A DNA stretch of 64,000 nt from NCBI GenBank assembly GCA_965262915.1, contig OZ253564.1, forward strand, positions 2,432,001-2,496,000, given 5' to 3'. Position 1 is the first letter of the stretch, and every line of letters begins with the position of its first letter. The notes under the pieces are model-generated. The model did no database searches. It was not told where the DNA came from and was given only the letters and a program-made list of their open reading frames with translations. The stretch is from Candidatus Spongiisociaceae bacterium. Its GTDB lineage: Bacteria > Actinomycetota > Acidimicrobiia > Spongiisociales > Spongiisociaceae. Positions 33,028 to 58,000 of the stretch are shown here, one piece after another. A program made the position numbers and the translations under genes.

Positions 33028-34122
33028 CTAGTGTCCTGATTCGGGGATTCGTTGTAGATAGTTGGTGAGGTTGTCGAAGATTTGGTCGGCGGTTTTGTGC
33101 CAGATGAAGGGTTTGGGGTTTTGGTTCCAGTGTTGGGTCCATTGGTTGATGGCGTCGGTGAGTTCGGCTACGGATCGGTGGGTGCCTCGGCGTATCTGTT
33201 TGGTGGTGAGTTCGGAGAACCATCGCTCGACGAGGTTCATCCACGACGCGTAGGTGGGTGTGAAATGGAACGTGAACCGTGGATGGCGTTGCAGCCAGCG
33301 CCCTATGGGTTCGGTTTTGTGGGGCGACGCGTTGTCCAACACGACATGGACGTCGAGTTCTGGTGGGACTTCGCGGTTGATGAGGTTTAGGAACGTCTGG
33401 AATTTGTGGGTGCGGTTGCGTCGTGTCATGGAGGTGATGACCCGGCCGGTGGCCGTGTCGAGCGCGGCCCCGAGGTTGGTGGTGCCGTACCGGCGGTAGT
33501 CGTGGGTGCGCCGCTGGGGGGTTCCGGGCAACAGGGGCAGGATCGGCGCGGTGCGGTCGAGGGCCTGTATCTGGGATTTGTGGTCCACACACAGCACCAC
33601 CGCCGCGTCGGGCGGGTTCAGGTACAAACCCGCCAGGTCGCGGACCTTTTCCACGAACTGGGGGTCGGGAGATATCTTGAAATGCTCGGTCCGGTGCGGC
33701 TTGAGACCGAACGCCCGCCATATTCTTAGGATCGACGACTGGGACAGGCCCACGGCCCTCGCCATGGACCGGGTCGACCAGTGCGTCGCGTCTCTCGGTG
33801 TTTCCTCCAGCGTCTTGACCACCACTTCTTCTACCTTGGCGTCGTCGATGCGGCGGGGCGGCCCGGGGCGGGGATTGTCGTAGAGGCCGTCGAGACGGCG
33901 CCGGGCGAAACGGTTCCGCCACTTCGAGACCGTAACCCCGCTGCAGCCCACCTCCGCTGCGATGTCCACATTGGTGCGGCCTTCGGCCGCTCCCAGCACG
34001 ATACGAGACCGCATCGCTAACCCTTGTGCGGTGCTACGCCGCCGTATCCACCGCTCCAGCGTCTGGCGTTCCTCTTCATCCAGCTCGATAACCACTGCTT
34101 TACGACTCCGCTGCTTCTCCAT
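33028..34122 (-). CDS. IS630 family transposase
   Basis: HTH, THWSTRSMA, CVDHKSQIQAL, VLDNASPHK, WMNLVERWF; the stop codon uses the target TA. Confidence 0.96.
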   Translation of the reverse strand: MEKQRSRKAVVIELDEEERQTLERWIRRRSTAQGLAMRSRIVLGAAEGRTNVDIAAEVGCSGVTVSKWRNRFARRRLDGLYDNPRPGPPRRIDDAKVEEVVVKTLEETPRDATHWSTRSMARAVGLSQSSILRIWRAFGLKPHRTEHFKISPDPQFVEKVRDLAGLYLNPPDAAVVLCVDHKSQIQALDRTAPILPLLPGTPQRRTHDYRRYGTTNLGAALDTATGRVITSMTRRNRTHKFQTFLNLINREVPPELDVHVVLDNASPHKTEPIGRWLQRHPRFTFHFTPTYASWMNLVERWFSELTTKQIRRGTHRSVAELTDAINQWTQHWNQNPKPFIWHKTADQIFDNLTNYLQRIPESGH

Positions 34123-34200
34123 ACGCTGCTCCCACTACTGACTGACACTGACCTGCATATTCTAGCAGCATATGGCAAAGAAACTAAGGAATCAGGACAC
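33031..34200 (-). mobile_element. Complete IS630-family insertion sequence (1170 bp)
   Basis: TIRs GTGTCCTGATTC/GAATCAGGACAC, TA at 33029-30 and 34201-02. Confidence 0.95.
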
Positions 34201-39571: not shown

Positions 39572-39780
39572 GTGGACGTTTCCTCTCCGGTCAGAAGGAG
39601 CGCCGAGATGACCATCGACCAGCTTGCTCATGAGGCGGGGATTCCCACTTCGACGGTGCGGCTCTACCAGAACAGAGGGCTGCTCCTTCCCTCGCTGCGG
39701 CAGGGCCGGATGGGTTTCTACAACGCCGAGCATCGCGACTGGCTCCGGTTGATCGCTCACCTGCAGGAACGGGGCTTCCA
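39572..39780 (+). pseudogene. Truncated MerR copy (HTH only)
   Basis: Near-identical to the 36345 gene up to LQERGF, then homology is lost. Confidence 0.85.
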
Positions 39781-39990
39781 GGAGGGTGGTCAAAATCGCC
39801 TCCACTGCCCGTCGGCCGATGACATAATCCCTGGTCAGCGGGCGACGGGCACCAGCACCCGATCATTTGCACCACCCTCCTAATGTCCCGAATCTCAAGT
39901 TCGTTGTGGTGAATACAGCTTCATCGGACTGCCGCGGCCCCGACCGGACCCCGGTCCTCCCTCTCCAGGTAACCGGCTGCCACACAAGGG

Positions 39991-40197
39991 TTGATCCTGT
40001 CACACCCACGTTGTATAATGTTTGATAGCCGTATACACCACCGGTTCGCTTCCGACGTCAAGCGGACCGGGGCAGGGATCACAATGCTTCGCGCCGACCC
40101 TCCCCGGGGATGGGGGGAGCGCGCTCGGGGACCGATGGAGGTGGCGGCGGGGGCGGGCCCACGGGAGTGGTCCGTTCGGGCGTTTTTCGCGTTCTCG
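39991..40197 (+). ncRNA. Candidate structured ncRNA gene with own promoter and terminator (copy A)
   Basis: TTGATC-17-TATAAT including TGTCAC-N10-TATAAT; hairpin CCGGTTCGCTT/AAGCGGACCGG; GGGA-loop hairpin plus TTTTT; homologous to copies B and C. Confidence 0.65.
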
Positions 40198-40286
40198 TTG
40201 TTGGGGATCGGGTGGGTGGGTTGCTCAGCCTTGCTTCCGGGTATCTGTAGCGATTTCCTGATTCAGGACACCGGACAACTATAGCG

Positions 40287-44211: not shown

Positions 44212-44414
44212 TTGATCCTGTCACACCGATGTCGCACAATGGTAAATAGCCGTAAACACCACCGGTCCGTTGCTGGTACCGATCGGACCGGGGCAGGGAT
44301 CAATCTGTCCGAGCACACCCTCACAGGGGAGGAGAGTTCGCGCTCGGAGCCTCGGAGGTGGCGGTTGGGGAAGGCCCGCGGCAGGGCTACGGCGGGGCGT
44401 TTTTCGCGTTCTCG
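44212..44414 (+). ncRNA. Candidate structured ncRNA gene (copy B)
   Basis: TTGATC-17-CACAAT, TGTCAC-N10; CCGGTCCG/CGGACCGG and TCCGAGC/GCTCGGA stems; ends CGTTTTTCGCGTTCTCG. Confidence 0.65.
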
Positions 44415-57638: not shown

Positions 57639-57730
57639 GCCCTTCAGCACCCTCCCAGTGTCCTGATTCCGGGATCAGTCATGGATACTCGGGACGTGCC
57701 GGCGTTGGCACCGGGCAGGCCTTGGGGGAC

Positions 57731-57936
57731 CGAGAACGCGAAAAACGTGGGACCGGATCCCTCCGACGGGCCCACCCCCGACCGCCACCTCCTCGGTTCC
57801 CGAACGCGTCCCGCCATCCCCTGCGAGGGGTCGGCTCCGACAACATGATCCCTGCCCCGGTCCGGTCGGTACCGCAAGACGGACCGGTGGTGTTTACGGC
57901 TACTTACCATTATGCAACGGGACTGTGACACGTCAA
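57731..57936 (-). ncRNA. Candidate structured ncRNA gene (copy C)
   Basis: TTGACG-16-CATAAT, TGTCAC-N10; CCGGTCCG stem; GTGGG..GGGA-loop..CCCAC hairpin plus TTTTT. Confidence 0.65.
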
Positions 57937-58000
57937 TCCTCTTGTGGCGGCGAGGCCGGTTCCTGCGGGGGTGCTGTGAGTGGGTTGGCATGCCGGTCCG

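Follow-up and report, generated by a model that had tools for sequence, protein, structure and literature searches.

Elements with inverted ends that carry passenger genes and no transposase are described as mobile insertion cassettes, and insertion sequences (IS) of the IS630 family duplicate TA within CTAG. In bacteria, miniature inverted-repeat transposable elements, or MITEs, are usually regarded as inert, or as elements from which promoters and small RNAs (sRNAs) arise by accident. Promoter-bearing MITEs are on record, the Correia element among them, and in Coxiella burnetii QMITE1 gives rise to the sRNAs Cbsr3 and Cbsr13 and QMITE2 to Cbsr16, according to the review PMC10969869 (see also PMC5896051). 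Here we describe three copies (A, B and C) of a block of about 170 nucleotides (nt) in a 64-kb stretch of the genome of a Candidatus Spongiisociaceae bacterium (bases 2432001-2496000 of one 5.06-Mb contig, OZ253564.1; this whole stretch is called the window below). We consider the block to represent a new, probably functional RNA family that is spread partly by MITEs.

The vehicle of copies A and C resembles other IS630-derived MITEs in its length of about 390 bp, the lack of a transposase gene, ends that are those of a resident IS630-family element, the TA in CTAG and its many copies. It differs in that the interior is unrelated to the IS and holds a conserved promoter-RNA-terminator block, and in that the RNA block is found also without such ends (copy B and the type II units described below) and in genomes where the transposase was not found. 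As in the QMITE sRNAs and the Correia element, a MITE has a sigma-70-type promoter that is predicted to give a small RNA, but here the RNA block is the conserved core and not a by-product of the repeat, with covariation over three genera, two deep subtypes and up to at least 45 copies per genome. With mobile insertion cassettes the element would share a passenger that lies between the ends and is mobilised in trans, but the passenger is here an RNA gene and the element is MITE-sized.

The original prediction described A, B and C as three dispersed intergenic copies of an RNA gene, and all of them are present where it placed them, with the layout it described. Their number did not stand, since the genome has 47 units, and the word intergenic hides that A and C sit inside a transposable element. 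Transposition as the main source of the multi-copy state was missed, and the partner IS lies in the same window. As a whole, the interpretation was partly supported: the pairing, the promoter-like site ahead of many units and the absence of a known family hold, while transposition and the size of the family had escaped it. In a MAFFT alignment of the three copies (A1) the mean column identity is 81%, and the motifs TAGCCGTAWACACCACCGG, GGCAGGGATCA, GGAGGTGGCGG and GTTTTTCGCGTTCTCG are invariant. The likeness is far above chance, as a BLASTN search with copy A gave 31 matches in the genome and a search with a profile made from 24 copies gave 47.

The predicted order of parts in a unit begins with a sigma-70-type promoter and a closing stem (P1), in which 5' GCCGU..CACC would pair with 3' GGUG.GCGGY. 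A long hairpin (P2) with a self-complementary hexamer at its tip would follow, then a G-rich central domain that includes a small CCCC/GGGG hairpin, a GC-rich and variable 3' hairpin, a U run and a nearly invariant tail, TTTTCGCG(T/A)TCTCG. Unit A has P1, P2 with GACGTC at the tip, the central domain, the 3' hairpin and the tail GTTTTTCGCGTTCTCG. Any reading frame common to MITE copies is broken by insertions and deletions of one and two bases between copies. The features of the window are collected in Table 1, with scores of the covariance model R1, which was trained on type I sequences only.

Table 1. Positions of the units, their promoter-like sites and the associated mobile elements in the window
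Feature	Position	Strand	Details
IS630-family insertion sequence, autonomous partner	33031..34200	-	1170 bp; ends GTGTCCTGATTC / GAATCAGGACAC; TA inside CTAG
Transposase open reading frame (ORF), 364 amino acids (aa)	33028-34122	-	NF033545 IS630 family transposase, 265.9 bits (cut-off 100); Pfam DDE_3 and HTH
MITE copy A	39883..40271	+	389 bp; ends match the 1170-bp IS630-family element
Left inverted end, MITE copy A	39883-39894		ATGTCCCGAATC
Right inverted end, MITE copy A	40260-40271		GATTCAGGACAC
Promoter-like site, copy A	39991..40019	+	TTGATC, 17 nt, TATAAT; 10/12
RNA unit A, type I	40025..40197	+	R1 150.7 bits (L001:1535-1707)
Promoter-like site, copy B	44212..44240	+	TTGATC, 17 nt, CACAAT; 8/12, under scan threshold
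RNA unit B, type I, divergent	44246..44414	+	R1 155.1 bits (L018); no IS630-type inverted ends
MITE remnant around copy C	57658..57990 (57990 limit approximate)	-	right inverted end GGAATCAGGACAC at 57670-57658
RNA unit C, type I	57731..57903	-	P2 tip GGTACC; R1 188.6 bits (L031)
Promoter-like site, copy C	57909..57936	-	TTGACG, 16 nt, CATAAT; 10/12
Tail motif			form TTTTCGCGTTCTCG

One indication of a structured RNA is that pairing is kept while the letters change. In alignment A4, made with MAFFT from 28 type I sequences of three genera and not fitted to the structure, 93.8% of the cells of the structure P1b + P1a + P2 + P2 tip + P4 pair compared to 89.4% after shuffling (none of 500 shuffles reaches 93.8%), and 9 of the 21 pairs change on both sides (shuffled mean 3.4), with slid controls pairing at 26-50%. 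Two alignments fitted to the model give the same picture: 92.0% against 83.1% with 19/21 pairs changing on both sides among 71 distinct sequences (A6), and 91.3% against 84.3% with 15/21 such pairs among 70 sequences from other genomes (A7). RNAalifold finds P1b and P2 in A4 (columns 8/146 are GC in 16, AU in 6 and UA in 2 sequences) and predicts the same P1 and P2 from 19 type II sequences alone. On the promoter strand, G-U exceeds A-C at paired positions by 97:25 and 114:30, about 4:1, which is expected of RNA or of one folded strand and not of a double-stranded palindrome. The proposed pairing of 5' GCCG..CACC with 3' GGTGGCGG is backed by covariation, and the claim that pairing persists despite drift holds for P1 and P2 in the unfitted as well as the fitted alignments, with covariation supporting P1b and P2. 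For the 3' hairpin, said to vary and still pair, the claim agrees with inspection by eye and with single-sequence folds, but the hairpin could not be placed on common alignment columns.

The tip of P2 is a Watson-Crick self-complementary hexamer in 56/68 loops of A6 and 60/67 of A7, compared to 18% of shuffled loops, and a further 10 and 6 loops, respectively, are self-complementary only with G-U (GGCGUC, GAUGUC). At least nine distinct Watson-Crick hexamers occur, including GGUACC, GACGUC, GGCGCC, GCGCGC, GAGCUC, GUCGAC and CGGCCG. As the hexamer cannot fold on itself, its conserved inner four bases suggest either a kissing dimer or a dimeric DNA-binding protein, and the G-U variants (16/135 loops) favour the RNA over the double-stranded DNA. 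The hairpin of the dimerisation initiation site (DIS) of human immunodeficiency virus type 1 (HIV-1) is a site of kissing-loop dimerisation. The loop described here is similar in having six self-complementary bases, with letters that vary and self-complementarity that is kept; it differs in that dimerisation is here only suggested by the loop, and that the palindrome could instead be a double-stranded DNA site for a dimeric protein.

Putative signals for transcription flank the structured part. When consensus matches out of 12 were scanned over a stretch of 19.5 kb, the sites ahead of A and C were two of three tied at the top score of 10/12, and a match of at least 9/12 lies within 60 nt upstream of 35/100 units compared to 2% of shuffles, the end of the -10 box being mostly 4-6 nt ahead of the start of the R1 model. 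A GC-rich hairpin with a T run is seen in the sequences and a terminator was called for C, so that a putative promoter upstream and a putative intrinsic terminator downstream are both present. When 15 MITE copies are compared pairwise, the tail has the highest mean identity (0.94), ahead of promoter and RNA (0.80), the inverted ends (0.70-0.74) and the arms (0.61-0.64). Short tandem repeats adjoin some promoters (GCCACAA about eight times in L033, GGACAAC about four times in L121).

No family of Rfam 15 reached its gathering threshold in the 64-kb window, and a permissive scan of copy A gave only noise (best 17.7 bits compared to a gathering score of 61), which agrees with the original view that the RNA is of no recognised kind. 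No account of this RNA was found in the literature on IS630 MITEs, bacterial MITE-derived sRNAs and the Spongiisoci- group (supplements excluded), and six terms on transposases and non-coding RNA were all absent from the main text of PMC11525543. Elsewhere in the genome, RF02464 (Actinobacteria sRNA Ms_AS-4) matches with 68.9 bits (threshold 50) at L233:1727-1810 on the minus strand (genome about 1875026-1875109), in a locus that was retrieved because of its IS110 element.

The 47 units of the genome fall into 24 of type I, 21 of type II and 2 that are decayed or truncated. Type I units score above 120 in the profile search and type II units only 21-52, yet the latter cover nearly the full span of the profile. 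The order of parts is the same in type II and the letters are different: the promoter is GGGGGTTGAnCCTGTCACA..CACTATGG, the 5' start GTACCAAACACC, the hairpin GCGGTGTCGAA-CCGGACGTCA-TTCGACCGC, followed by GAGGGATCA, ACGCG and AGGTGGTGGTGGGGGAGGGCCC, and the 3' end consists of the 3' hairpin and GTTTTTCGCGATCTG. R1 recovers type II units at 44-75 bits. Judged by its sequences, the family has two deep (old) subtypes.

The sample of relatives comprised 28 genomes from the same family and, from 11 other families in the order, 32 genomes; absence means here that a thing was not found in those searched, the genomes being samples. R1 matches occur in 21 of the 28 family genomes (genera g1 7/7, g4 3/3 and g7 11/12; the seven without a match have a completeness of 72-96%), and none was found in the 32 genomes of the other families; a DNA search gave the same distribution. 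The number of matches per genome ranges from 7 to at least 45, a lower bound that six genomes reach. An unpublished genome (G032) adds to the distribution tallies one transposase match outside the family and otherwise rows of no match. An exact-pattern scan with one genome per species gave at least 116 stretches, 80 of which became loci, and R1 confirms a unit in 65 of these. The 15 loci where R1 found no unit are one from Acidimicrobiia and all 14 from other taxa (Streptomyces, Polyangiaceae and others), the latter being taken as chance matches to the pattern. Two pattern matches on viral contigs are both weak partial R1 matches (16.4 bits).

The vehicle of type I became visible when the units were aligned with flanks of 220 nt. 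The homology extends to GTGTCCYGArTC on the left and GAaTCAGGACAC on the right, adjoining TA in CTAG (core consensus of the ends GTGTCCYGA / TCRGGACAC), and a 1170-bp element that occurs 12 times in the genome, once within the window, has the same ends. All 12 IS copies have TA on both sides, always in CTAG. Eleven of them are at least 98% identical, and the 364-aa frame is intact in 11 copies, the twelfth (genome 961457) being split over two frames; the transposase survey also shows fragments of related IS copies. The MITE is 383-392 bp long in the 11 copies with both ends, and the RNA starts about 144 nt from its left end and stops about 74 nt from its right end. By manual reading, both ends (at most 2 mismatches, at the expected distance) accompany 11 of the 24 type I units; 8 others carry a single end and the remaining 5 carry neither. 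TA is present on both sides in 5 of the 17 MITE copies listed and most others keep it on one side, as copy A does on the left; in the remnant around copy C the left arm is partly kept and the left inverted end is lost. Type I copies yielded no pair of a filled and an empty site. The transposase gene takes up the IS, and nothing there corresponds to the interior of the MITE. Elements of the A and C type thus combine IS-matching ends, a TA target, small size, the lack of a transposase gene and many copies, and on these features A and C are the interior of an IS630-derived MITE of about 390 bp. About half of the units in the genome (type I, including A and C) are cargo of this MITE, and the multi-copy state is largely explained by transposition.

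The RNA block is found more widely than this vehicle. The flanks of copy B gave no alignment with those of other copies and no IS630-type inverted ends were found there, and none is seen at the expected distance in the flanks of type II units. Among 53 full-length units of other genomes with enough flank, 9 have the left end (at most 1 mismatch), 9 have the right end and 2 have both. A transposase of this IS630 type was found in 5 of the 28 family genomes (g1 4/7, g6 1/2, g7 0/12, g4 0/3; E <= 1e-20) and is much rarer than the RNA, which occurs in g7 and g4, where the transposase was not found. Draft assemblies often lose IS copies; g7 nonetheless includes genomes of one or two contigs. The best-supported account is that the RNA block is older and wider than the IS630-type vehicle, a MITE that acquired it in this genus. 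In the relative G002 the flanks of copy B are 200 bp apart compared to 1000 bp here, and thus B is missing there together with a neighbouring segment. Two type II sites (genome 4357047 and 4885506) are empty in both G002 and G007, with gaps of 113-118 and 86-190 bp compared to 377 and 532-588 bp here, and units are therefore gained or lost in whole blocks. The intergenic DNA of G002 and G007 is too diverged for exact ends or target duplications of type II to be defined.

Some units and elements are arranged in other ways. In one Acidimicrobiia metagenome-assembled genome (MAG) a unit (L118:1051-1364) lies between other inverted ends, TTAGAGGGATAGCG / CGCTATCCCACTAA, next to TA; these are 14 nt long and 93% complementary, span 314 bp overall and would be a second MITE backbone for the same cargo, and this type of inverted repeat was not seen in the sister copies L160 and L183 in the same scan. 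Many copies of the MITE and the IS sit in the middle of a repeat with long inverted arms, GTCATCGGTCGACGGGCCG...CACCACCCTCC TA on one side and TA GGAGGGTGGTG...CGGCCCGTCGACCGATGAC on the other (for example genome 2577161-2577547, 2577653-2578822 and 2974613, and the left flank of copy A at 39838-39882). The uninterrupted centre of this repeat, CCTCCTAGGAGG, occurs 3 times in the genome and longer joined forms do not occur. A common palindromic empty target was rejected because the joined form is too rare, and the shared flanks are therefore better seen as arms of another, nearly always interrupted repeat. This repeat would be a preferred target, occupied in nearly every case, or else the outer layer of a nested element. 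At genome 2496768-2498389, about 770 bp beyond the end of the window, two type II units are inverted and read outwards like a composite element; a 415-aa plus-strand ORF between them (genome 2496934-2498181) was rejected as a lead to a transposase, as it has no Pfam match. These two units (L235, 268-444 minus and 1713-1889 plus) also enclose a 349-aa minus-strand gene (540-1589), which overlaps the ORF and by eye resembles an ordinary enzyme.

The tail is a subject of its own. All 22 matches to TTTTTCGCG[AT]TCT in the genome are unit tails. Upstream of the RNA start, at a distance of 35-110 nt, an inverted copy of the tail (TCGCGAAAA, at most 1 mismatch) is present in 11 of the 23 lower-scoring units (21 type II and 2 decayed type I) and in 13 of 53 units elsewhere, compared to about 0.5% of shuffles, and in 0 of the 24 type I units. 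Tail and inverted copy resemble two DNA sites that bracket the unit. Doubling of the tail motif TTTTCGCG, at a distance of 13-50 nt (about 20 nt in some units), is seen in several of L036, L041, L121, L137, L148, L156, L129, L193, L120 and L164; in L137 the upstream inverted motif is likewise doubled, with a period of 21 nt, and in L049, L051 and L177 a tail-like motif in the same orientation stands directly before the promoter.

We consider it likely, with clear reservations, that these units form a large family of promoter-driven structured RNA genes of about 170 nt, partly borne by MITEs and kept by selection. Several results weigh against this. The best conserved piece, the tail, is located beyond the U run where the RNA would end, and its inverted upstream copy is a feature at the level of DNA for which a plain RNA gene offers no explanation. 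Of the three sets used for covariation, two are fitted alignments and biased towards the model, and the copies are related by transposition, so that counts of compensatory cells overstate the number of independent events. P1a (CACC/GGUG) is almost invariant and is for that reason neutral either way, and it is broken (A-C) in copies carrying GGCGG. No single register of P3/P4 in the central domain fits all subfamilies; one register was rejected, as two alternative 3' partners suit different subfamilies. Folding energy gives no signal: the minimum free energy of copy C is -72.7 kcal/mol compared to a dinucleotide-shuffle mean of -79.8 (z = +1.39), 186/200 shuffles fold at least as well, and the antisense strand of C has z = +1.27. 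Finally, contigs assembled by Logan from the metatranscriptome X5 cover 39884-40149 and cross the putative start. X5 is one of five candidate RNA runs (X5 is labelled RNA, X1-X4 are labelled by guess), each with 8-14% of sampled words, and contigs from four of the five cover 39753-40149 in pieces that stop at repeat borders; contigs of this kind cannot show the ends or the level of an RNA.

Part of this evidence suits a plain DNA repeat, in which the units would be the interior of a MITE and its decayed remains, with promoter and terminator parts that are by-products or act on neighbours as in Correia elements, and no functional RNA. We regard this as unlikely. IS630-type inverted ends and TA enclose the type I copies, the presence of units differs between species, the folding energy is no better than that of shuffles, no RNA ends can be read from the library contigs that run across the putative start, and sigma-70 promoters on MITEs are known (PMC10969869). 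Against it, the pairing of P1 and P2 is kept by two-sided changes also in the unfitted alignment, G-U outnumbers A-C about 4:1 on one strand, the interior is more conserved than the arms and even than the inverted ends, both IS630-type ends accompany only 2 of the 53 units of other genomes, and genera in which no such transposase was found still have the RNA block. The strand bias suits a folded DNA strand equally well, and folded single-stranded DNA serves as a site for enzymes in integron attC and at the ends of IS200/IS605. If the units were such sites for a recombinase or transposase, the tail and its inverted copy would be the true ends of the element, and the conservation of the tail (0.94), its restriction to units, its doubling in some of them and the frequency of the inverted copy would find their place. 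The promoter is nevertheless conserved in the right position and orientation, the hairpin and U run have the layout of a terminator, no gene for such an enzyme adjoins the units and exact ends of type II could not be defined, which makes a folded DNA site very unlikely in our view.

A guide or bridge RNA of a transposon enzyme, of the kind of the IS110 bridge RNA or the omega RNA of TnpB/IscB, provided in trans from non-autonomous elements, has a probability that we put lower again. These RNAs resemble the present one in being structured, about 150-200 nt long, linked to mobile DNA and provided with their own promoter, and the length of about 170 nt and the many copies of the present units would suit such a role in a genome with 51 IS110 DEDD domain matches and 2 of TnpB type. 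They differ in that no gene for such an enzyme adjoins the units: all 47 are at least 4.4 kb from the nearest IS110 domain, and R1, run with filters off, has no match in four IS110 loci (best score 9.5 bits, E 0.055), and an IS110 bridge RNA was rejected on both grounds. An omega RNA was rejected likewise, since both TnpB-type domains are more than 10 kb from every unit and the alignments show no guide-like variable segment at the 5' or 3' end. To our knowledge, IS630 transposases are DDE enzymes with no RNA cofactor, which also counts against a guide. The IS110 load is unusually heavy for a 5-Mb genome, with several near-identical groups among the 51 DEDD matches, and the TnpB-type (PF07282) domains are at genome 764698-764895 and 2593427-2593624, the second with an internal TGA. 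The order of promoter, structured RNA and terminator-like hairpin is also that of an attenuator, and a cis-acting leader or riboswitch could act through the terminator on a downstream gene. This is close to refuted, as the downstream gene is on the opposite strand for 12/21 type II units, the flanking proteins are mostly unrelated, units sit inside MITEs and no Rfam riboswitch matches. Antisense pairing to the leader of the IS630 transposase was rejected as well, the duplex energy being without signal (-84.0 compared to -80.9 +/- 5.6 in shuffles, with a method that is crude for long sequences).

Under the RNA gene family that we prefer, the IS630 transposase, acting in trans, would mobilise the type I MITEs, and transcription of the RNA would start from its own promoter and end at the hairpin and U run. 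It may then act in trans as a structured RNA or an RNA-protein scaffold and not as a simple antisense RNA, which we propose with low certainty. Two copies of the RNA probably pair with each other at the palindromic loop of P2. Selection on the RNA, beyond transposition, would keep the promoter-RNA-tail block intact. A further-reaching idea, to which we give a small chance, is that this block is itself the selected, self-propagating entity, a gene for a dimer-forming RNA that recruits varied transposon backbones, such as the GTGTCC-type IS630 ends here and the TTAGAGGGATAGCG / CGCTATCCCACTAA ends in another genome, and also spreads without them. If this is true, the block would be a bacterial counterpart of the short interspersed nuclear elements (SINEs) based on RNA genes, and the RNA would be needed for the spread or survival of the element or for life in the sponge host.

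The kind of element is already known, as promoter-bearing MITEs and MITE-derived sRNAs are on record (PMC10969869). The new points here are how deeply the RNA is conserved, its covariation, its copy number and that it does not depend on any one pair of ends, with the RNA being the best conserved part of an element whose relatives are usually seen as inert. The RNA outlives the transposase that would move it, three genera have it at 7 to at least 45 copies per genome, and the self-complementary loop offers a concrete idea of RNA-RNA dimerisation. A second function, at the level of DNA and explained by no current model, is indicated by the tail together with its inverted upstream copy. If the RNA is made, it would probably be among the most highly encoded non-ribosomal RNAs of these bacteria and a new Rfam family. 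Since the records that bear the motif are by their titles almost all Acidimicrobiia MAGs, several of them Candidatus Spongiisociaceae or Spongiisocius, the RNA may bear on the biology of this group of symbionts.

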